This document shows, piece by piece, positions 3,161 through 59,930 of a stretch of DNA of 64,000 nucleotides (the first letter of the stretch is position 1; every line of letters starts with the position of its first letter). The notes under the pieces are model-generated. The model was not told where the DNA came from. It made no database searches and saw only the letters and a program-made list of their open reading frames with translations. Location: contig JAVBQS010000019.1 in NCBI GenBank assembly GCA_031548835.1, forward strand, positions 2,445 to 66,444. The letters run 5' to 3'. A program made the translations under genes and the position numbers. The stretch comes from Spirochaetia bacterium (GTDB taxonomy: Bacteria > Spirochaetota > Spirochaetia > CADAEX01).

Positions 3161-3163
3161 AAC

Positions 3164-3190
3164 ATGTACAACATGTACAACATGTACATA
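3164..3190. repeat. 3 x 9-bp tandem repeat (ACATGTACA)3
   Basis: 'acatgtaca acatgtaca acatgtaca' lies directly between the permease stop and the exchanger gene start. Each unit carries overlapping ACATGT and TGTACA palindromes. Confidence 0.8.
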
Positions 3191-9357: not shown

Positions 9358-11172
9358 ATGATAGTAAAAATGAATAAAGTTTTTCTTGTAATTCTTGACT
9401 CAACCAGGGAAAAGTCGCTTGAAAAACTACGGAAATTAGGTGTTGTTCATATTGAAAAAGAAAATAAATCAAATGAAACACTTAACTCATTAATTGAAAA
9501 AAGAGTTCTTTTTGAAAAAACTATTTTTGCTCTTCCCAAACATCATAATGAGCATAAGGAATCTGCTCCTCTGCATGTTGATTTTTCAGAAGCTGAAAAA
9601 GTTGCAGAAGAGGTAAATGGAATTCTTGAAAAAATACACAGCCGCGAAGATGGAAAAGAAAGGGATAAAAAAGATATCCAGACTCTTACGCCATGGGGTG
9701 AATTTGATCCTTCAACTATAGCTCTTCTTGAAAAAGATGGAATCTCTTTAAGATTTTATACTCTTACAAAAGAACAGTTTGCAAATCTGCCGCAGGATCT
9801 GAAATATATAACAATAAATAAAATAAAAGATATAACTTATATTGTTTCTATCTTTTTGAAAGGAGAATCTCCTGTTGAAATTGCAGGAGAAAAACTTGTT
9901 CTTCCTGCTGCAGGCATAAAACAGCTTTCTGAAAATATGAACAAGAAAGATGAAGAAATTGCAGAATTGCACAAAGAGCTTGAAAACCTGGCAGATAAAA
10001 AAGAAATTCTTGAAGAAGGCCTTAAAGAACTTAAAACAACTCTTGAGTTTGAAACTGTTAGCGCAGAAATGAATATGGAACAACAATTTTCCTATATTTC
10101 AGGTTATGTTCCTGTTAATCTTTTAGAAGATGTTAAAAAAGAAGCAGCAGCAAATAATTGGGCTCTTCTTATCCGCGAGCCTGATAAGGAAGAGAATCCT
10201 CCTACTCTTATCAAAAATAATAAATTTGTAGAATTTATAAAACCGCTTTTTAGCTTTCTTGATGTAACTCCCGGTTATAAAGAATTTGACATAAGTTTCT
10301 TTTTCCTTATTTTCTTTATACCATTTGTGGCAATGATTGTAGGAGATGCAGGATATGGATTATTTGTTTTAATTTTTACAATAATCCTGCGTATTAAGGT
10401 CAAGAATTTTCCAGGAAAACTGTTTGGCCTTTTATGTGTATTAGGCTGCGGAATTCTAGCCTGGGGAACGGTAACTGGAAACTGGTTTGGCTCATCAGCA
10501 ATCGCACAACTGCCATTTGTTAAAGCGCTTACAATTCCTCAAATTGCAAGCTTTGGGGCTTATGATACTTCAGATAATATTAAGCAAATTGCATTTACAA
10601 TTGGTATGATACAGCTTACTCTTGGTATTATTATAAGCTTTATAAGAAAAATGCCGTCGCTTGCAGCATTTGCAGATATTGGCTGGCTTTTTGTTCTATA
10701 TGGAATGTATTTCTTTGCGCAATACTTTGTAATGGGAGCAGCGTTAAATCCTCTTGCAATAATATTGGTTCTTGTAGGCTTTGTAATTTTAATTCTCTTT
10801 TCCTATCAGGGGGGAAAAAATATTTTTAAGGGAGCTTTGCTTGGAATAGCATGGTCGCCGCTTACAGCTCTTAACTGTGTAAGTTTGTTTGCTGACCTTG
10901 TTTCATATATAAGGCTTTTTGCTGTTGGCCTTGCAGGTGTGGCAGTTGCTTCAAGTTTTAACAATATGGCTGCAGAAATTGCCAATAACGGAATTGTTGG
11001 CATAATATGCGCAGCTCTTATTATTATTGTTGCACAATCATTTAATATAGTGCTTTGTGCTCTTTCTGTAATTGTTCATGGCGTAAGGCTTAACATGCTT
11101 GAATTTGGAAATAAAATCGGAATGGAATGGAATGGTCATAGCTATGATCCATTCAGAAAAAAAAGTTTCTAA
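9358..11172 (+). CDS. atpI: V-type ATP synthase subunit I (membrane a-subunit)
   Basis: 604 aa with a hydrophilic N-terminal half and a C-terminal polytopic membrane domain. The start overlaps the atpD stop. Confidence 0.9.
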   Translation: MIVKMNKVFLVILDSTREKSLEKLRKLGVVHIEKENKSNETLNSLIEKRVLFEKTIFALPKHHNEHKESAPLHVDFSEAEKVAEEVNGILEKIHSREDGKERDKKDIQTLTPWGEFDPSTIALLEKDGISLRFYTLTKEQFANLPQDLKYITINKIKDITYIVSIFLKGESPVEIAGEKLVLPAAGIKQLSENMNKKDEEIAELHKELENLADKKEILEEGLKELKTTLEFETVSAEMNMEQQFSYISGYVPVNLLEDVKKEAAANNWALLIREPDKEENPPTLIKNNKFVEFIKPLFSFLDVTPGYKEFDISFFFLIFFIPFVAMIVGDAGYGLFVLIFTIILRIKVKNFPGKLFGLLCVLGCGILAWGTVTGNWFGSSAIAQLPFVKALTIPQIASFGAYDTSDNIKQIAFTIGMIQLTLGIIISFIRKMPSLAAFADIGWLFVLYGMYFFAQYFVMGAALNPLAIILVLVGFVILILFSYQGGKNIFKGALLGIAWSPLTALNCVSLFADLVSYIRLFAVGLAGVAVASSFNNMAAEIANNGIVGIICAALIIIVAQSFNIVLCALSVIVHGVRLNMLEFGNKIGMEWNGHSYDPFRKKSF

Positions 11173-11247: not shown

Positions 11248-11679
11248 ATGGGTATCGCTCAAATGGGAATAGCAGCAGCATTTGCTCTTGCGGCAGCGGG
11301 ATCAGCAATTGGTATTGGATTGGCAGGTATGTCTACAATAGGGGCATGGAAAAAAGCTTATGCACAGAATAAACCAGCTTCTTTTCTTCTTATTGCTTTT
11401 GTTGGCGCTCCATTTACACAAACAATTTATGGAATGATTCTTATGAATCAGCTTAAAAGTGCAGTAGAATCAACAGATCCGGGAGTTATTCTTGGCGCTG
11501 GTATTTTCGGCGGACTTGGTATTGGTATGTCAGCATGGTTTCAGGGAGCAGCTGCAGCTTCAGGAGCTGATGCTCTTGCAAGCACAGGAAAGGGATTTAG
11601 TAACTATCTTATAGTTTTAGGACTTATAGAATCTGTAGCGCTTTTCGTTATGGTTTTCCTTATGGGAATTTTAGGCTAA
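11248..11679 (+). CDS. atpK: V-type ATP synthase proteolipid subunit K
   Basis: 143 aa, Gly/Ala-rich, four predicted TM helices ('GAGIFGGLGIGMSAW'). Confidence 0.9.
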   Translation: MGIAQMGIAAAFALAAAGSAIGIGLAGMSTIGAWKKAYAQNKPASFLLIAFVGAPFTQTIYGMILMNQLKSAVESTDPGVILGAGIFGGLGIGMSAWFQGAAAASGADALASTGKGFSNYLIVLGLIESVALFVMVFLMGILG

Positions 11680-11716: not shown

Positions 11717-11735
11717 ATCAGGATTATATCCTGAT
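11717..11735. repeat. 19-bp perfect palindrome ATCAGGATtatATCCTGAT
   Basis: Read directly from the sequence. It shares the ATCCTG core with the repeats at 11843-11879 and 38439-38528. Confidence 0.7.
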
Positions 11736-11802
11736 TATAGGTAGTTTTGCCAGGGTTTTTATCCCAGATGAATCATGGCAGGGTATTACACAAAGAAAGG
11801 AA

Positions 11803-11840
11803 GGCAGGCATGGAGTTAAAAATTCATGCCTGTTTTTTTA
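11803..11840 (+). terminator. Rho-independent terminator of the V-ATPase operon
   Basis: 8-bp GC-rich stem caggcatg/catgcctg (11805-11812 / 11825-11832) with a 12-nt loop, followed by T8 at 11833-11840. Confidence 0.7.
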
Positions 11841-11842
11841 TT

Positions 11843-11879
11843 ATCCTGGCATGTATAGTAAGCCGTGTCAGGGTTATTT
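11843..11879. repeat. Short intergenic repeat ATCCTGG-N22-CAGGGTTATT (copy A)
   Basis: 'atcctggcatgtatagtaagccgtgtcagggttattt'. Related copies with the same ends occur at 38439-38471 and, inverted, at 38507-38528. A degenerate copy 'atcccag...cagggtatta' lies at 11761-11789. Confidence 0.6.
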
Positions 11880-12055: not shown

Positions 12056-12955
12056 ATGAAACTTTCCAGCCTTCTGAAGCCGGACTATATTAAGATTAAT
12101 AAAGATGTTCGGACCAAGGGCGACGCAATAAAAGAGATTCTCAAAAATTTCAGAGAAACTTATGATTTTACAGTTGATAACGCTTATCTATTAAATGCGG
12201 TAGAAGAACGTGAAAAACTTGGAGGCACAACTTTTCCCACAGGTATTGCAATACCTCATGCACGTCTTGATAATTTTGATGATATTCTTATAGGCATTCT
12301 TATTCCTCAAAATCCTATAAAAGACGAAAATATTGATATCAAAATGGTAGTTCTTATCCTTACATCAAAAACTGTTTCAACTGTCTACCTTAATGCTCTT
12401 GCTGCGCTTATAAAAGTATCAAGAGATAAAGATGCATTTTCAAAAATAGCAGCTGCGGCAAACGGACAGGAGTTGGTAAACATAGTTGATAAACTGGATA
12501 TAACAGTAAAAAAAGAGATGACTGTTGCAGACATAATGTCTGAAGAAGTTTTTTCTGTGACTCCAAAAACTACAATAAAAGAGCTTGCTGATATTTTTTA
12601 TGTAAATAAAACAGTTTATGTGCCTGTTGCTGATGAAAAAGGCGAATTTATCGGCGAAGTAAATTTAATGATACTTATAGAGGAAGGAATTCCCGATTAT
12701 GCAACCCAGCTCGGTAATCTTAATTTTCTTAAAACTTTTGAACCTCTTGAAAGGCTTTTCAGAAAAGAAGATGAGATTACTGTTGGCCAGATAATGAAAA
12801 AACCTTCTATTGTTTTTACCAGGGAAACATCAATTGTAGAAGCTGCTCTTGAATTTACCAAAACACAAAGAAGACATATTCCTGTTGTTGAAGGCAAAAA
12901 AGTAATCGGTGTTCTTGCGCTGGTTGATTTCCTTAACAAGATATTAAGGAGCTAA
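12056..12955 (+). CDS. PTS EIIA(Fru/Ntr-type) domain fused to a tandem CBS pair (regulatory protein)
   Basis: N-terminal 'GIAIPHARLD' with the phosphorylatable His of PTS_EIIA_2. The C-terminal half has two CBS-like repeats ('VADIMSEEVFSVTP', 'VGQIMKKPSIVFTRE'). Confidence 0.75.
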   Translation: MKLSSLLKPDYIKINKDVRTKGDAIKEILKNFRETYDFTVDNAYLLNAVEEREKLGGTTFPTGIAIPHARLDNFDDILIGILIPQNPIKDENIDIKMVVLILTSKTVSTVYLNALAALIKVSRDKDAFSKIAAAANGQELVNIVDKLDITVKKEMTVADIMSEEVFSVTPKTTIKELADIFYVNKTVYVPVADEKGEFIGEVNLMILIEEGIPDYATQLGNLNFLKTFEPLERLFRKEDEITVGQIMKKPSIVFTRETSIVEAALEFTKTQRRHIPVVEGKKVIGVLALVDFLNKILRS

Positions 12956-22454: not shown

Positions 22455-22493
22455 TATTGCTGCATCATCCCGGCTTTGCCTGCTGCGGCCGGG
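22455..22493. terminator. Candidate bidirectional terminator hairpin between convergent nadE and the MCP gene
   Basis: 9-bp stem catcccggc/gccgggatg with a 12-nt loop. No clear U-tract. Confidence 0.3.
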
Positions 22494-22524
22494 ATGGCAA
22501 TAGAGAAGAAAAACACAGCATAAG

Positions 22525-28191: not shown

Positions 28192-28232
28192 ATAGTTTTA
28201 ATAAAATAAAATTTTTTTTTTACAGAAAAAAT

Positions 28233-28255
28233 ACCCTGATGATGAGTCAGGGTAT
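28233..28255. promoter_or_regulatory. Palindrome TACCCTGA-tgatgag-TCAGGGTA (8-bp stem), second copy of the gltA-upstream element
   Basis: It shares 'CCCTGATGATG..TCAGG' with the site at 25744-25758 and lies 37 nt upstream of the ALDH start. Confidence 0.5.
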
Positions 28256-28291
28256 AACTATGTATAACTAATTTATTAGGAGAAGGTAGAG

Positions 28292-29747: not shown

Positions 29748-29917
29748 TTTTTAAAAAACTGATGGGCTGCGAAGCGTACTGTATAGATAACATATAACAA
29801 ATATAAATTTGATAATTAAATACAGTATACACTTCGTTATCCAGCACAATTTTGGTAGATAAATTTATAGACTGTTAAAGTAAAATAGTTTAGTTTAAAT
29901 ATATAAAGAGGAAAAAA

Positions 29918-32187: not shown

Positions 32188-32358
32188 GGCCTGTTCGACA
32201 ACCTGGTTAGAAGTTATTTTGTGAATACCAAATAAGTACTAATTTGGAGACAATGTATGATTTTTTACAGGTAGTTCATAATCTTAAAGGTTTTATTTTA
32301 TAACCCCGGCATGACTTACCATACCGGGGTTACCATTTTTAGGTTGTCGAACAGGTCT
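32188..32358. repeat. 171-bp element bounded by 15-17-bp perfect inverted repeats (CCTGTTCGACAACCT), containing a small ORF and a strong internal hairpin. MITE-like, or a structured leader/ncRNA.
   Basis: The left IR is at 32190-32204 and the right IR at 32341-32355 (aggttgtcgaacagg). The internal 9-bp hairpin taaccccgg/ccggggtta at 32301-32332 is followed by 'ccattttt'. A 16-codon ORF (MYDFLQVVHNLKGFIL, 32253-32303) has GGAG 3 nt upstream. Confidence 0.6.
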
Positions 32359-34169: not shown

Positions 34170-34181
34170 AAGAGGTGTTGT

Positions 34182-34529
34182 ATGGCATCAATACTTGTAA
34201 TAGATGATGATAAAGGCATTCAAAAAAGTTTTGCTAACCTATTGAGTAAAGAACACGAGGTTTTAAGCGGATATAACGGAAAAGAAGGGCTTGAAATTCT
34301 TGAAGCCAGGGAAGCTGATATGGTTTTTCTTGACTATCAAATGCCGGGAAGCGACGGCATTGAAGTATTAAAAATAATAAAAAAGAAAGAACCTGAATTG
34401 CCTGTAGTCATGATTACAGCGCATGGCAGTTTTGAAACAATAATAGAAGCAATATCTTTAGGCGCATATGATTATATAGAGAAACCTCTTGATATTGATA
34501 AAATTAATATTATCGTAAAAAGAGCATGA
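34182..34529 (+). CDS. Response-regulator receiver domain (N-terminal part of an interrupted NtrC-type activator)
   Basis: 'ILVIDDDKGI', 'DMVFLDYQMPGSDG' and the conserved Lys region 'VVMITAHGS'. It ends with TGA at 34527-34529, in frame with the next ORF. Confidence 0.85.
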   Translation: MASILVIDDDKGIQKSFANLLSKEHEVLSGYNGKEGLEILEAREADMVFLDYQMPGSDGIEVLKIIKKKEPELPVVMITAHGSFETIIEAISLGAYDYIEKPLDIDKINIIVKRA

Positions 34530-34541
34530 GAATCCTGCAGG

Positions 34542-35570
34542 ATGAACAAATATGTGAATGCTGTGCAATCTGAACAGATAAAAAACTATGGATTTAAAAA
34601 AATTATAGGAAATTCAACCGCAATACAGGAGGTTTTTAAATCTATAGGAAGGCTTGTTAATAATGATGTTATTGTTCATATAGCAGGAGAAAGCGGGACA
34701 GGAAAAGAGTTGGTTGCACATGCGCTGCACTTTAATGGCAAGAGAAAAAATGAACCTTTTATTGCTGTTAACTGTTCCGGCCTTATAGAATCTATTTTGG
34801 ACAATGAACTTTTCGGCCATGAACCGCAGGCTTTTACAGGCGCTGTATCGCTTAAAATAGGAAAATTTGAAGCAGCAGGAGAAGGAACAATATTTCTTGA
34901 TGAAATTGGAGATATGCCTCTTACAATACAAACAAAATTCCTGAGAATTCTTCAGGAAAATGAATTTCACAGAATGGGTGGACTTAAAAATATTAAATTA
35001 AAGGCAAGAGTTATAACTGCAACAAACAGAAATCTTTTTGAAGAAGTACAGGCAGGCCGCTTTCGGGAAGATCTTTATTACAGAATAAATGTTGCAAAAA
35101 TAATTTTGCCGCCCCTTCGGGAAAGAAAAGAAGATATTCCTGAACTTACAGATTTTTTTGTTCAAAAAATTTCAAGAAAAATTAACAAAAGTTTTATATC
35201 TGTGCCTGAGCAAATAAAAAATGAATTTATAAATTATGATTGGCCTGGAAATGTAAGAGAGCTTGAAAATCTAATTACAAGTATGTGTATAAATGCAAAA
35301 GGAGCTGTTCTTGCATTAGACGATATGCCGGCTACTGTTTTAAAATCATCAAGAGAAGATTGTCTTTCCAAAGTTATAGATAAATTTTATATGGAAAATA
35401 AACATTCAAAAAATCTGCTTCCTCTGCTTTATGAAAAACTTGAAAAAATAATGATAGATAAAATTGCACATGAGCAGAACAATAATAAATCTGCCATGGC
35501 AGAAATACTTGGGATAAGCAGGGTTACGCTTACAAAAAAAATGAATCAGGATGAAAAAAGCCATAATTAA
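34542..35570 (+). CDS. Sigma-54 interaction (AAA+) domain plus Fis-type HTH (C-terminal part of an interrupted NtrC-type activator)
   Basis: Walker A 'GESGTGKE'. The GAFTGA-like 'GHEPQAFTGA'. 'VRELEN'. C-terminal HTH 'SAMAEILGISRVTLTKKM'. It is in the same frame as the receiver ORF, separated by TGA plus 4 codons. Confidence 0.85.
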   Translation: MNKYVNAVQSEQIKNYGFKKIIGNSTAIQEVFKSIGRLVNNDVIVHIAGESGTGKELVAHALHFNGKRKNEPFIAVNCSGLIESILDNELFGHEPQAFTGAVSLKIGKFEAAGEGTIFLDEIGDMPLTIQTKFLRILQENEFHRMGGLKNIKLKARVITATNRNLFEEVQAGRFREDLYYRINVAKIILPPLRERKEDIPELTDFFVQKISRKINKSFISVPEQIKNEFINYDWPGNVRELENLITSMCINAKGAVLALDDMPATVLKSSREDCLSKVIDKFYMENKHSKNLLPLLYEKLEKIMIDKIAHEQNNNKSAMAEILGISRVTLTKKMNQDEKSHN

Positions 35571-36641: not shown

Positions 36642-38312
36642 ATGAGTGTCTGGAATGTGTTTACACTGATAGGAGGGCTTGCTGTTTTTCTCTATGGAAT
36701 GATGGTAATGAACAGAAACCTCACATCAATAGCAGGTGAGAAAATGAAATCCATAATGCTCACACTGACTAAGAGCAGGCCAAGAGGTTATATTACTGGC
36801 CTTGGTATTACAATGATTAATCAGTCATCGTCAGCAACAACAGTACTTGAAGCTGCGCTTGTCGGTGCCGGATTAATGACTTTTCACCAGAGTGTTGCTG
36901 TTACTTTGGGTGCTGAGCTTGGTTCAACTTTCCTGGCACACATTGTAGCTTTTCCATCAATAACCAAATTTGCAGCTCTTATAATTGCCGGCGGTTTTTT
37001 CGCTTCTATTATGCTTAAAAAACAGAAAGCTATTAATGCAGCTCTTGCTATTTTTGGTTTTGGTCTTTTATTTATGGGAATGGACATGATGTCTGAATCT
37101 CTTAAACCATTAAGAACATATCAGCCTTTCCTGGATCTTATGATAAAAGTTGAAACTCCTATCCTTGGTATACTTTTGGGCCTTGTTTTTACAATGGTAG
37201 TTCAGTCATCTGGCGCAACAAGTGGCCTTACCATAGCTATGGCAATGGCAGGAACAATAAGTCTTGAACAGGCTGTTCCAATTAACCTTGGCGCTGCAGT
37301 AGGAACATGTATTACCGCAATTCTAGGAAGCCTTGCATTAAACTGGGAAGCTAAAAGATCTGCCTATATCCATGTAATGTTCCAGGTTATAGGTACTATT
37401 TGGGTTTATATACTTTTAATGATACGTATGCCAAACGGAGAAAGAGTTTTTATCTGGCTTGTAAAATGGGTTACAGCAACTGTTTTCAGAACAGATAATC
37501 TTGGAAGAGAAATTGCAACAGGTTTTACACTTATGCCTGTAATTAACCATATACTTTTATTTGCTGTTCCAAAATTTCTTGATACAGTTGTTGCTATTTT
37601 TGAGAAAATATTCCCGCCGAAAGAGAGCGAAAAGCCTTTCAGTGTAAAATATCTGCAGGAGCAGCTTATTGACGGAAGTGTTGAAATAGCTCTTGAAATG
37701 GCTAAAAAAGAAATTCTTATTGATGCAGACCTTGTAAAAAGCATGTTTGAAAAGGTTGATCTGGCATTTAAACATAAGGATATGAAATTAATAAATCAGA
37801 TTTCAGAAACAGACTCAAAAGTCGATCTTCTTCATAAAACCATAATTCTATTTCTTGCAAGAATATCGCGCAAAGAACTTGGCCAGGATGAATCCAAGAG
37901 AAGTATGAACTATCTTTATATAGAGAATGAACTTGAATCTATTGGAGATGTTATTGATAAAAACCTTATGGTAATGGCTAAAAAGATGATAAATCTTGGA
38001 CTTAATTTTTCAGAACAGGGCGGCAAAGAACTTACCGAACTTCATGGAAAAGTAATGGAAAATATTAATAGAATGGTTAAAGCTCTTGCAGAAGAAAATG
38101 CTGAGCTTGCAAAAGAAATAAAAGAAGTATATGCAGATGTTAATGAGACAAAATATCAGCTTTCACATATTGAAAGGCTCCATAAAGGCCTTAAAGTATC
38201 AATTGATACATCATCTGTGCATCTTGATGTAATAAACTATTATGCAAGAATAAATGAACATGTTGCTTATATTGCAGACAGGATAATCTGGCTTACAAAG
38301 AAGCATGTTTAA
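36642..38312 (+). CDS. Na+/phosphate cotransporter (NptA/Na_Pi_cotrans family) with C-terminal PhoU-like domain
   Basis: 'GGLAVFLYGMMVMNRNL' and a repeated transporter half. The C-terminal roughly 200 aa are helical and PhoU-like. 556 aa. Confidence 0.85.
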   Translation: MSVWNVFTLIGGLAVFLYGMMVMNRNLTSIAGEKMKSIMLTLTKSRPRGYITGLGITMINQSSSATTVLEAALVGAGLMTFHQSVAVTLGAELGSTFLAHIVAFPSITKFAALIIAGGFFASIMLKKQKAINAALAIFGFGLLFMGMDMMSESLKPLRTYQPFLDLMIKVETPILGILLGLVFTMVVQSSGATSGLTIAMAMAGTISLEQAVPINLGAAVGTCITAILGSLALNWEAKRSAYIHVMFQVIGTIWVYILLMIRMPNGERVFIWLVKWVTATVFRTDNLGREIATGFTLMPVINHILLFAVPKFLDTVVAIFEKIFPPKESEKPFSVKYLQEQLIDGSVEIALEMAKKEILIDADLVKSMFEKVDLAFKHKDMKLINQISETDSKVDLLHKTIILFLARISRKELGQDESKRSMNYLYIENELESIGDVIDKNLMVMAKKMINLGLNFSEQGGKELTELHGKVMENINRMVKALAEENAELAKEIKEVYADVNETKYQLSHIERLHKGLKVSIDTSSVHLDVINYYARINEHVAYIADRIIWLTKKHV

Positions 38313-38321
38313 TTTTTAAAC

Positions 38322-38349
38322 GAGGGCATCTTTTTGATGCCCTTTTTTA
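38322..38349 (+). terminator. Rho-independent terminator of the Na/Pi cotransporter gene
   Basis: Stem gggcatc/gatgccc with loop ttttt, followed by T6. Confidence 0.75.
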
Positions 38350-38438
38350 TCCCGGCATAGTACCGCCACAATGGTTATTGCCCTAAAATCTACGGAACCG
38401 CTGATTAAATTGACTCTAATCATCGGTTTCATATTACT

Positions 38439-38528
38439 ATCCTGGTTTGGCAAAGCCATATCAGGGTTATTTTTCCCGTTTTCCATGGAAAACTGCGAAA
38501 AACAATAATAACCCTGGTGTGCCAGGAT
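38439..38528. repeat. Composite palindromic element: ATCCTGG..CAGGGTTATT (copy B1), central 16-bp perfect palindrome GTTTTCCATGGAAAAC, and an inverted copy AATAACCCTG..CCAGGAT (B2)
   Basis: B1 is at 38439-38471, the central palindrome at 38478-38493, and B2 at 38507-38528. It is the same repeat family as 11843-11879. Confidence 0.6.
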
Positions 38529-38615
38529 AAAAAAATAGTGCTGATTTATTCTCTACCCTGAAACAAGTATACTTCGCTACCCAAAGGGTGCTTCGCAACT
38601 TTTGAATAAATCAGC
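38528..38615 (-). terminator. Candidate terminator of the minus-strand zinc-ribbon gene: 12-bp stem (gctgatttattc/gaataaatcagc) with a long structured loop, followed on the minus strand by U7
   Basis: The inverted repeat at 38540-38551 / 38604-38615 was read from the sequence. The A7 run at 38529-38535 gives a U-tract on the minus strand. The loop is unusually long (52 nt). Confidence 0.35.
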
Positions 38616-38630
38616 GTTGCTCTAATTAAA

Positions 38631-39020
38631 TTATTTTGCCTTACGGCACAAGGTACAGCCCAGCACATGAAGATGTTTTTTTCCCGGCCGTATAAAATAT
38701 CTTCCCACAACATATCCGTCTGCAGGCAGCTTTTTTTTACATACCGGACATATTCTGCTTTTTGTTCCATATGGCGGAATACATTTGGGGCACCCAAAAA
38801 CATCCATAAGAGTATCTTTACTTTCTGTAGGATAAGTTTTTGATTTTACATTTTCTCCTTTGGAAAGCGATGAATTGCACAAAGGACAGAATTTTGATGA
38901 TTTACTCTCTTCCTGACGATTTTTTTGCCTATTATTTGCTGTTTTTTGGGGAAATGAGAAACCAAGCCGTAGAAGTATAAAAATAATAGCTAAAAGAAGA
39001 ACAATAATAAGATATTCCAT
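38631..39020 (-). CDS. Small membrane-anchored protein with four CxxC pairs (zinc-ribbon-like)
   Basis: N-terminal TM 'MEYLIIVLLLAIIFILLRLGF', followed by 'CPLC', 'CPKC', 'CPVC' and 'GCTLC'. Confidence 0.55.
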   Translation of the reverse strand: MEYLIIVLLLAIIFILLRLGFSFPQKTANNRQKNRQEESKSSKFCPLCNSSLSKGENVKSKTYPTESKDTLMDVFGCPKCIPPYGTKSRICPVCKKKLPADGYVVGRYFIRPGKKHLHVLGCTLCRKAK

Positions 39021-48070: not shown

Positions 48071-49897
48071 ATGAGAGGAGCATCTATGAGGTGTAACAAA
48101 TTATTAAAAATTACAAAAAGTTTAATACCTATATTAGGTATATTATTTATATTTGGCTGCGATAGTTCTGGAGGAAGCGGAGGGCCAAAAGGCGGAGCAG
48201 CGCCGGCAGTGCCGACAGGAGTTACATTAACTGAACAGGAAAATCAGTTAATGGTAAACTGGAGCGCTTCTGAGGGAGCCGAAAAATATACAGTTTACTG
48301 CGGCACAGTAGAAAACCATGCTGTCGCAGACAAGAAACTGGAAAATATAACATTAACAAATACATTAATTCCCGGCCTTGCCGGCGATACAACATATCAT
48401 GTATGGGTACAGGCTCATAATAGCTATGGCTCAAGCAATGTAAGTACAAGAGCAAGCGGGTCTCCAAGAGGAACAGAGGGTCCTGTAATACCAGTAGTGC
48501 CTGCAGCGCCGACAGGCGTTACAGTAACAGCAGCAGATAGCCAGTTAACAGTAAGCTGGAATGCCTCACAGGGGGCAAGTTCATATAAGGTTTATTACAG
48601 TGCAGCAAATACCAAACCGGCAAATACAGATAAAACAGGAATAACAGGCACAACAGTAGTTTTAACAGGCCTTGCAAATAATACAACCTATAATGTATGG
48701 GTAGTTGCAGGAAATACCGCTGGAGACAGCGCTGCAAGCACAGTTACAAGCGGAATGCCGAAAGCAGCAGTTACAGCGCCAGCAGCTCCAATAAATGTAA
48801 CAGCAACAGCAGAAGGCTTTGGAGAACTTATACTAAACTGGAGTGCGCCTGAAGGTGCAACTATATACAAGGTTTATTCCAGTAAAACAAATACAATGCC
48901 TGCCACAGTTACTAAATCAGGAATAACAAGCACAACCTTAACCATAACAGGACTTATAAATGATACAACCTATTATGTATGGGTAGTTGCATCAAACAGC
49001 GCAGGAGACAGCTTGCCGAGCGCAGTTGCAAGCGGAAAAACAAAATTGCCGTTGCCTGAAGCGCCTCTAGATGTAACAGTAACAACAGCAGGCAATGGAG
49101 CTTTTAAGGTAAAGTGGAGCGCTTCACAGGGAGCAAGTTCATATAAGATTTATTATAATACATCAGATAGCATGCCGGCTGAGGCAAATAAGACAGGAAT
49201 AACAGGAACAGCAGAAACCATAACAGGACTTGCCAATGACACAACCTATTATATATGGGTAAAAGCTGCTAACAGCGCCGGAGAAAGCATTGCAAGTAAT
49301 GTTGCAAGTAAAAAAACAATATTACCAGCGCCGGCAGTACCTGCAGGAGTTACAGTTACAGAAGCAGATAGACAATTAACAATAAATTGGAATGATGTTC
49401 CAGGAGCAGAATTTTATATTGTTTATTGGAATACTGAAGATAATTATGAATCTGCAAATATTTTTCATACAATAACAACAGACAGTGATGGTTTTTTATA
49501 TACAGAAGTTTTAGTTGATGGACTTATTAATGGCGCTACCTATTATTTCTGGATAGCTGCAGGCAACAGCGCTGATTCAAGTGAAGTAAGTACAGTTGTG
49601 AGCGGAATTCCAAATCTATTATATGGACCTATTACAGCTCCCACAGATATAACAGTATTTGTAAAGAAAAAAAATATGACAGTATCTTTTAGTGCAGTAC
49701 CGGGCGCTGTATTATACGTAGTTTATCGTACTACATCTCCTACTCCTCCAAATATTGAATCTAAGTCAGGAGCTAATACAAAGATAAAAGTACAAAATAG
49801 TGTATCTGGAACAACATATTATATATGGGTTAAAGCAGTTAGCAGTAGTGGCGACTATAGTGATTTTAGCGAAATGATAACTTTTACAATGCCTTAA
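48071..49897 (+). CDS. Surface lipoprotein composed of about 6 tandem fibronectin type-III-like repeats
   Basis: Lipobox 'IFGCDSSGG'. About 90-aa repeats '(A/V)P(T/A)GVTVT..QL(T/M)V.W..S.GA..YKVYY......TGITGT...TGL.N.TTY.VWV.A.N.AG.S'. Confidence 0.8.
   Translation: MRGASMRCNKLLKITKSLIPILGILFIFGCDSSGGSGGPKGGAAPAVPTGVTLTEQENQLMVNWSASEGAEKYTVYCGTVENHAVADKKLENITLTNTLIPGLAGDTTYHVWVQAHNSYGSSNVSTRASGSPRGTEGPVIPVVPAAPTGVTVTAADSQLTVSWNASQGASSYKVYYSAANTKPANTDKTGITGTTVVLTGLANNTTYNVWVVAGNTAGDSAASTVTSGMPKAAVTAPAAPINVTATAEGFGELILNWSAPEGATIYKVYSSKTNTMPATVTKSGITSTTLTITGLINDTTYYVWVVASNSAGDSLPSAVASGKTKLPLPEAPLDVTVTTAGNGAFKVKWSASQGASSYKIYYNTSDSMPAEANKTGITGTAETITGLANDTTYYIWVKAANSAGESIASNVASKKTILPAPAVPAGVTVTEADRQLTINWNDVPGAEFYIVYWNTEDNYESANIFHTITTDSDGFLYTEVLVDGLINGATYYFWIAAGNSADSSEVSTVVSGIPNLLYGPITAPTDITVFVKKKNMTVSFSAVPGAVLYVVYRTTSPTPPNIESKSGANTKIKVQNSVSGTTYYIWVKAVSSSGDYSDFSEMITFTMP
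48200..49890. repeat. Intragenic tandem DNA repeats (about 270 bp period, about 6 copies, divergent) encoding the FN3 modules
   Basis: The periodic recurrence of 'acaggcgttacagtaacagcagcagatagccagttaacagtaagctggaatgcctcacagggggcaagttcatataaggtttattac'-like blocks is visible in the DNA. Confidence 0.7.
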
Positions 49898-59755: not shown

Positions 59756-59930
59756 GATTGCTAGTCCGGCTCTATATAAACAAGCAGGCTTTTGCTTAAT
59801 TAAGTTTATAAGTCAAATTGGCTCAGGCATATAATCATGCCTGAGCTTACAATAATATAATACCTGTTATTTTAATTTGGGCAGCTGCAGCGAAGTAGAC
59901 ATTTAGGCTGTAAACTAATATTATTAAATT

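Follow-up and report, generated by a model that had tools for sequence, protein, structure and literature searches.

Short palindromic intergenic repeats of a probable REP/REPIN-like family in a marine-type spirochaete

The DNA considered here, called the window, is a stretch of 64,000 nucleotides from an uncultured, marine-type spirochaete. It is AT-rich (about 33% GC), and the closest named proteins of the two window proteins that were queried, at about 60% identity, are from 'Spirochaetia bacterium', Oceanispirochaeta and Spirochaeta isovalerica. Locus 1 is the 376-bp gap between atpK (11248–11679), which is the last V-ATPase gene, and a PTS-EIIA/CBS gene (12056–12955). From left to right, it includes a perfect palindrome, two degenerate repeat units (c1 and c2), the terminator of the V-ATPase operon and an intact unit (A). 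Locus 2, a gap of 318 bp, separates a Na/Pi cotransporter gene (36642–38312) from a convergent gene (38631–39020) encoding a zinc-ribbon-like protein of 129 amino acids; in this gap, a terminator is followed by a decayed unit (E), an inverted doublet of two intact units (B and C) and a separate 12-bp inverted repeat. These features, together with two variant sites between the loci, are as follows:

11717–11735, no strand: perfect 19-bp palindrome ATCAGGATTATATCCTGAT, composed of ATCAGGAT-TAT-ATCCTGAT
11727–11760, + strand: degenerate unit c1, TATCCTGA-N16-CAGGGTTTTT, matching a relaxed pattern
11760–11788, + strand: degenerate unit c2, TATCCCAG-N11-CAGGGTATTA
11805–11839, + strand: intrinsic terminator of the V-ATPase operon, CAGGCATG-N12-CATGCCTG and then T7, not a repeat unit
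11842–11878, + strand: intact unit A, TATCCTGG-N19-CAGGGTTATT, exact match
28224–28260, − strand: possible variant unit, ATACCCTGA-N7-TCAGGGTAT and then T6, with a perfect 9-bp stem, intergenic
32296–32340, + strand: symmetric variant unit, ATAACCCCGGCATG and CATACCGGGGTTA around a spacer, significant match to the model described below
38322–38347, + strand: intrinsic terminator of the Na/Pi cotransporter gene, GAGGGCATC-N5-GATGCCCTT and then a T-run, found by terminator scan
38348–38379, + strand: degenerate unit E, TATCCCGG-N14-CAATGGTTATT, relaxed match
38438–38471, + strand: intact unit B, TATCCTGG-N16-CAGGGTTATT, exact match, left half of the inverted doublet
38478–38493, no strand: GTTTTCCATGGAAAAC, a perfect palindrome of 16 bp, central, in the spacer between B and C
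38507–38529, − strand: intact short unit C, TATCCTGG-N5-CAGGGTTATT, exact match, right half of the inverted doublet
38540–38615, − strand: separate inverted repeat GCTGATTTATTC / GAATAAATCAGC, 52 nt apart

Units of this kind are about 23–37 bp long and are delimited by the ends TATCCTGG and CAGGGTTATT, which are found in exact form three times, 5, 16 or 19 nt apart (11842–11878 and 38438–38471 on the + strand, 38507–38529 on the − strand). An earlier note on this DNA had pointed to three related motifs downstream of atpK. Two of them, the palindrome ATCAGGATTATATCCTGAT (11717–11735) and ATCCCAG-N11-CAGGGTATTA (11761–11788), are present as described, and the third, ATCCTGG-N-CAGGGTTAT, is also present (11843–11877), with a spacer of 19 nt instead of the claimed 22 nt. 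The same ends do recur in both orientations at the second locus (38439–38470 on the + strand, 38508–38528 on the − strand), as had been noticed, while the relaxed copies at 11727–11760 and 38348–38379 had been missed. The note had placed a further copy, ATCCTGCAGGAT, after the in-frame stop of a split NtrC gene. This sequence does occur (34532–34543), but it belongs to the NtrC-type regulator's reading frame and is translated as E-S-C-R-M, aligned with ESRKL/ESSKM in relatives. Since it is part of a coding frame, it is not an intergenic repeat, and it has been rejected as a member of the family. The exact units and the degenerate ones co-located with them are without exception intergenic.

The recurrence of the ends in the window exceeds chance. 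For the pattern ATCCTGG-N(3–30)-CAGGGTTAT, three matches were found versus 0.00 expected from 100 dinucleotide-preserving shuffles, none of which gave a copy. Relaxed patterns, with one or two mismatches permitted at each end, gave five to six matches versus 0.4–0.7 expected from 200 first-order Markov simulations of the whole window, and the extra matches c1 (11727–11760) and E (38348–38379) share the two intergenic regions of the exact copies. Another relaxed match, at 10380–10418, sits within a gene and looks like chance. A set of 80 metagenome loci (492 kb), each chosen for one exact match, served as a control: a second relaxed match was present in 3 of the 80, versus six relaxed matches in the 64-kb window. 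A generic stem search (ATCC-xy...y'x'-GGRT), with 13 matches versus 8.4 expected, was too unspecific to be of use.

A covariance model built from the three exact copies (A, B and C) only has revealed one further significant site, the variant at 32296–32340 (28.6 bits, E=3.9e-4). The site at 28224–28260 is matched weakly (E=0.076 and E=0.29), and its membership is uncertain. None of c1, c2 and E is individually significant with this model (c1 alone: 13.9 bits, E=3); they are counted as members because of their co-location and shared interior sequence. In alignments, an ATAG(G)TA interior is common to A, c1 and E, which together with its co-location supports the membership of c1, and E and A also have GGCAT..AGTA..CCG in common, while AAGCC-R-T-R-TCAGGGTTATTT is common to A and B. 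The shared interiors and the finding of a fourth locus, besides A, B and C, by the model point to common descent of the units rather than convergence. A palindromic repeat family in the window is thus confirmed as real, and it is a fairly ordinary one.

What kind of structure do these units form? The conserved ends TATCCTGG and CAGGGTTATT constitute the base of an imperfect hairpin, in which AUCCUGG is apposed to CCAGGGU in seven pairs, one of which is a U.G pair in each of the three exact copies. This stem base is preceded by one conserved base and followed by UAUU. Beyond this base, stem and loop vary among the exact copies, both in length and in sequence, leaving 5, 16 or 19 nt between the ends. 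In RNA folding, the motif strand is more stable than its complement in unit A (−13.8 vs −5.4 kcal/mol), in unit B (−15.2 vs −9.7 kcal/mol) and in unit C (−9.2 vs −7.8 kcal/mol), with fold z-scores of −2.4 to −3.4 for the exact copies. This advantage of the motif strand comes from the G.U pairs, and the same strand trend has been obtained with DNA parameters. The predicted hairpin of c2 is weak, and that of E has decayed. B and C, arranged tail-to-tail, are predicted to fold together (38432–38535) into a single hairpin of about 90 nt (z = −4.8 and −5.5), the tip of which is the 16-bp palindrome at 38478–38493. At locus 1, c2 adjoins c1 head-to-tail, and the palindrome at 11717–11735 consists of the left end of c1 and an inverted partial copy of that end before it; that is, it is a head-to-head junction with a stub. 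A covariation count on eight aligned units gave nothing beyond shuffles, apart from one compensatory pair. The symmetric variants at 32296 and 28224 suggest that the family may have come from a perfect palindrome, AATAACCCYGG...CCRGGGTTATT, and we infer that the common form would be this ancestral palindrome minus three bases of its left arm. The variant at 32296–32340 sits within a 166-bp element with 15-bp inverted repeats at 32190–32204 and 32341–32355.

Three of the units have a peculiar position with respect to terminators. Unit A begins 2 nt past the T-run of the V-ATPase operon terminator, and unit E is directly 3′ of the T-run of the Na/Pi cotransporter terminator. On the − strand, the inverted repeat at 38540–38615 is followed by a T-run and then by unit C, which directly follows this hairpin and T-run. 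Thus, A, E and C all start 0–2 nt after a hairpin and T-run on their own strand (n=3), which suggests that terminators are preferred landing sites of the units, three cases being few. The inverted repeat at 38540–38615 is likely the terminator of the convergent 129-aa gene. In contrast to A, c1 and c2 are positioned upstream of the operon terminator, in the 3′ UTR of atpK.

Related spirochaete contigs whose flanking proteins are 75–87% identical have made it possible to see what the two gaps look like elsewhere. At locus 1, the gaps were compared by eye, anchored on the terminator, as a MAFFT alignment was too diverged for exact insertion edges. The terminator hairpin and T-run are kept in both L126 and L125. 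L126 has the terminator but no units, and its gap is 217 bp versus 376 bp in the window. L125 has, upstream of the terminator, an adjoining two-unit array, TATCCTGGCAT...AGGATTAA and then TATCCCGGC...GGAATATTAT, preceded by an inverted AGGATA stub (AGGATAaaaaaTATCCT), an architecture that matches c1–c2 of the window. Unit A after the terminator is found in the home lineage only, being absent in L126 and L125.

At locus 2, the gap of 318 bp in the window corresponds to 67 bp in L130, 69 bp in L215 and about 75 bp in L127, the last being an alignment figure from a contig that stops inside the gap; these three have one bidirectional terminator only. The L129 contig stops 130 bp past the gene; in it, GCTCTAATT comes immediately after the T-run, whereas the window has this sequence 269 bp further on, at 38617. 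Since 38348–38616 is missing in L129, the whole block, including the inverted repeat at 38540–38615, is an insertion. L128 has a different palindrome at locus 2. The units of this locus are found in the home lineage only, and the site is empty in L127, L129, L130 and L215. On this comparison, the intact repeats are lineage-specific insertions relative to related genomes. Because the units are absent where relatives keep the genes and the terminators, they are not conserved regulatory elements. The coexistence of old, decayed copies (c1, c2 and E) with intact, lineage-specific ones (A, B and C) is the pattern that would be expected of a family adding copies.

Exact-protein look-ups with window genes have retrieved only two Logan assemblies, both of the identical strain. 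These two independent short-read assemblies break at 38423/38424, and one of them also at 38596/38597, so that the break points bracket the B/C doublet. The breaks are compatible with repetition or allelic heterogeneity and prove neither; strain heterogeneity and palindromic k-mers are other possible causes.

Wider searches have added little. In a genome collection, TATCCTGG-N(4–24)-CAGGGTTATT gave at least 117 single matches in unrelated taxa, with no spirochaete among the matches listed; as this pattern has 18 fixed bases, about 360 chance matches are expected and the scan is uninformative. In a metagenome collection, the doublet pattern had no match, and a 19-base monomer pattern gave 84 singletons in separate samples, roughly as many as chance would give, and enrichment in none of them. 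Rfam has no family at either locus, where it returned only generic hairpin noise, and none for a structured region of L123. The L123 contig has GACG/CGTC-containing hairpins, which appear to be another family. A literature search with the end sequences yielded only unrelated primers. A GTAG or CGTC tag is absent from both ends of the units, GGTAG being present only in the loop of c1. No Y1/RAYT or other transposase domain was found among about 50 ORFs of the window (Pfam) or in the contig annotations. RAYT is normally single-copy, and therefore its absence from 64 kb says little.

Several readings other than a mobile repeat have to be weighed. The units might be functional RNA hairpins, either auxiliary terminators or 3′-end stabilizers, which are selected in place and resemble one another by local duplication or convergence rather than by mobility. 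All of them are hairpins with U-rich tails (UUAUUU...), c1 and c2 would be included in the atpK transcript, and the G.U pairs that favor the motif strand are relevant at the RNA level. In addition, the terminator scan picks up unit C on the − strand, where it could end transcripts of the convergent 129-aa gene, and the unit model weakly matches the genuine atpK terminators of relatives (E=0.04 for L126 and E=0.31 for L125). However, canonical terminators are already present at both loci and are conserved in the relatives, the units being add-ons that are missing there, and little transcript should reach unit A downstream of its terminator. The terminator scan does not call A and B, and unrelated terminators 26 kb from each other would not be expected to have 18 end bases in common, a fixed U.G pair among them. 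We regard selection in place as unlikely. Insertion of another type is conceivable for locus 2, where the doublet block could be a DDE-type MITE with a target-site duplication, leaving the single units as fragments or solo ends. A segment of about 195 bp (38422–38616) is indeed flanked by direct repeats, TTGACTCTAAT (38411–38421) and TTGCTCTAAT (38617–38626), and is bracketed by the breaks in the same-strain assemblies, and the 32296–32340 variant is within an element with perfect 15-bp terminal inverted repeats. Against this, the segment itself lacks terminal inverted repeats, and the unoccupied site of L127 contains its first 9 nt (CGGTTTCAT), so that its boundaries do not match a single clean insertion. 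The single units A and E lack a flanking duplication, and the element with 15-bp inverted repeats (32190–32355) occurs once only in all DNA examined. A MITE is thus quite improbable.

The inverted-repeat character of ATCCTG/CAGG(G)AT, the perfect palindromes ATCAGGAT-TAT-ATCCTGAT and ATACCCTGA-N7-TCAGGGTAT, and the exact conservation of the 18 end bases around a variable interior could all be understood if the ends were half-sites of a DNA-binding protein, such as a global regulator or a nucleoid protein. The earlier note had offered a global DNA-binding-protein site as one of its two options. It is disfavored, since spacings of 5, 16 and 19 nt in the exact copies are incompatible with a fixed dimeric operator, and since the sites are 3′ of genes beside terminators, not at promoters, and are not kept in relatives retaining the same genes; the supposed extra site, ATCCTGCAGGAT, is coding sequence. 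This makes half-sites the least credible of the readings considered. It is also very unlikely that there is no family at all and that one or two local duplications put similar hairpins at two loci with none comparable elsewhere. Exact copies are known from two intergenic regions only, and the scans of public collections are all at chance level among the matches listed; yet 26.6 kb separates the copies, which are found in both orientations and differ in their interiors, decayed and intact ones exist side by side, a related two-unit array is present in a different species-level relative (L125), and there is an independent variant at a third locus (32296–32340). Two other candidates have been rejected. 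An integron attC site does not fit, as the right end is GTTATTT versus the GTTRRRY core, the left end has no AAC-type core, and there are no cassette ORFs and no integrase nearby. A recombinase or operator site does not fit the variable spacing (5, 16 and 19 nt).

The remaining reading, to which we assign a probability of about 0.62, is that the units belong to a dispersed palindromic repeat of the REP/REPIN kind that is specific to this lineage, a genome-wide family being extrapolated from two loci with exact copies. Four features of REP/REPIN elements are seen here: a short (about 20–40 bp) imperfect palindrome that forms a stem-loop, with units of 23–37 bp; strictly intergenic placement; occurrence as single units, head-to-tail pairs, mixed orientations and one tail-to-tail inverted doublet; and presence/absence turnover between relatives at both loci. 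The element probably works like REP/REPIN, as a new family of that broad kind rather than as a demonstrated RAYT-associated member. The first option of the earlier note, a REP/BIME-type element, was therefore largely correct: short intergenic palindromes, mixed-orientation clusters and lineage turnover all agree with it, and the missing GTAG/CGTC tag does not.

An outline of how such a REP/REPIN-like family would arise is as follows. Its copies would have multiplied over time through an enzyme that acts in trans and is encoded at another place in the genome, most plausibly an HUH/Y1-like enzyme working on the single-stranded hairpin of the motif strand, in the way that HUH/Y1 transposases handle REPs and IS200/IS605 ends. 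Insertion would favor positions immediately 3′ of the T-run in intrinsic terminators. Effects on the host, if any, would be secondary: the atpK transcript might carry one more hairpin at its 3′ end, or the convergent 129-aa gene might obtain a substitute terminator.

A more specific proposal is that the units represent an undescribed, untagged REP-like class in Spirochaetota, with a fixed asymmetric stem base, that is inserted 3′ of terminator T-runs by a non-RAYT enzyme. Recognition would then be through AUCCUGG/CCAGGGU, the obligatory U.G pair and the 3′ UAUU tail, and the enzyme might be, for example, a divergent HUH nuclease or one that targets terminators as class C group II introns do. 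We offer this proposal tentatively and think it doubtful.

If the REP/REPIN-like family is confirmed genome-wide, it would add a family from a poorly studied, uncultured marine spirochaete lineage, one that is outside the two tagged REP superfamilies and has an apparent preference for sites directly after terminators. The combination of an untagged unit and a terminator-adjacent position could help to identify what mobilizes untagged REPs. Such repeats would account for the broken short-read assemblies around locus 2, and they are usable as strain markers. The current view of how REP-like elements work is unchanged.

REP copy number is typically more than 100, dispersed over the genome. The closest likeness is to REP/BIME elements and REPIN doublets of Proteobacteria (E. 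coli, Pseudomonas and Stenotrophomonas), which are mobilized by the Y1 transposase RAYT. Like the present units, they are extragenic, imperfect palindromes of 20–40 bp, usually positioned at the 3′ ends of genes and oriented by an asymmetric stem; they occur as singles, mixed-orientation arrays and inverted doublets that form one long hairpin, and their presence or absence varies between related genomes. The present units differ in having no GTAG/CGTC tag and no RAYT seen in the window, in their AT-rich host (33% GC) and AT-rich flanks, and in that only the base of the stem is fixed, the distal stem and loop being very variable (5–19 nt). Most REPs have been sorted into two superfamilies by a GTAG or CGTC end tag (PMC3733652), and CGTC-tagged REP-like repeats have been found in five phyla including Spirochaetes (Di Nocera et al., 2013; PMC3733652). 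The latter resemble the present units as short spirochaete stem-loop repeats with no dedicated transposase identified, whereas the present units are without the defining CGTC tag. According to a 2025 survey (PMC12306157), REP-like palindromes are spread over many phyla, Spirochaetota among them, and their motifs have little similarity from taxon to taxon; a further such family is thus unsurprising.

Two other kinds of mobile element share single features with the units. The ends of IS200/IS605 elements and of their transposase-less derivatives (palindrome-associated transposable elements) work through a subterminal imperfect hairpin on one strand and, like A and E, insert without target duplication, in their case beside a short specific sequence; A and E are also like them in folding better on one strand. 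Left and right hairpins of IS200/IS605 are in direct orientation around cargo or a spacer, whereas the units here each consist of a single hairpin, and B and C, the pair at locus 2, are inverted relative to each other. Class C group II introns and other terminator-targeting elements insert immediately downstream of the hairpin and T-run of an intrinsic terminator, the position occupied by A, E and C. These introns encode a ribozyme and are 0.7–2 kb long, in contrast to the present units of 23–37 bp, which have no ribozyme, no ORF and no Rfam match.

Besides the exact copies (A, B and C) of the REP/REPIN-like hairpin repeat, the window holds other short repeats and hairpins, listed here by window position.

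Repeats, hairpins and contig end points in the window
3161-3190: AACATGTAC, three times in tandem, inside a 61-bp intergenic gap
22467-22495: ATCCCGGC-N13-GCCGGGAT, perfect 8-bp stem between convergent genes
29770-29790, 38567-38600 and 59888-59900: words with CTTCGC or GCGAAG (also in related spirochaetes, at 2377-2510 of contig L125 and 4590-4610 of L126)
32190-32355: 166-bp element with perfect 15-bp inverted repeats (CCTGTTCGACAACCT) at its ends
38423/38424 and 38596/38597: contig end points to the left and right of the repeat doublet

The hairpin at 22467-22495, which is probably a bidirectional terminator, shares its ATCCYGGC start with several repeat units, and this word is found at six places in the window, where 1.6 would be expected. 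The covariance model built on units A, B and C also matches, weakly, the terminators of atpK, the last V-ATPase gene, in relatives. The 166-bp element, which is MITE-like, lies upstream of a histidine-kinase gene and encloses the symmetric hairpin variant (32296-32340), though only a single copy of the element was found across all DNA examined. Two relatives (L127 and L128) have none of the two-component module that separates the NUDIX gene from the Na/Pi gene. The words with CTTCGC or GCGAAG, which are short and G+C-rich and turn up in multiple intergenic regions of the window and of relatives, may constitute an additional small repeat family. Repetition is also seen within a coding region: the gene of a 608-aa protein has a tandem array of about six units, each 276-297 nt long (48248-49845), which correspond to fibronectin type III domains.

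Around the repeat doublet, the inverted pair of units B and C, short-read Logan contigs of the identical strain (L120, L121 and L122) stop at shared bases, the left one in two samples, a pattern suggestive of repeated sequence or of allelic variation within those samples. Elsewhere, an in-frame TGA (34527-34529) splits an NtrC-type sigma-54 activator (context 34180-35570). Intact orthologues of 466 aa (L130) and 462 aa (L129) have Val or Leu in its place, the surrounding residues being RA*ESCRM in the window and RAVESRKL and RALESSKM in the orthologues. The TGA could reflect a nonsense mutation that turned the gene into a pseudogene, a mistake in the assembly, or a codon that is read through.

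In the relative represented by L123 and L124, the PTS protein is 87% identical; its upstream region differs and does not follow atpK. Repeats of other kinds are found in such relatives.

Repeats in related spirochaetes
L123 830-1070 and 1620-1700, L124 1-80: repeated units of ~60 bp ending in GACG/CGTC-containing hairpins, e.g., GCGACATCCGTGTCGC
L123 ~1200-1270: (CTTGTTG)n tandem array in the same upstream region
L128 2968-2995 and 3260-3284: palindrome (C)TGTCGCAAATTTTGCGACA(G), two copies less than 300 bp apart

One of the L128 copies is located at a contig end, within a called ORF. Palindromic repeat families particular to single species appear to be present in these spirochaetes. A G+C-rich, structured-looking stretch of ~270 nt (L123 1340-1610) is also present in an AT-rich gap; an Rfam search of this stretch gave no match at E<=0.01, and it may be an RNA not yet catalogued. 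The hairpin-ended units of the L123/L124 relative call to mind the CGTC-tagged REPs.
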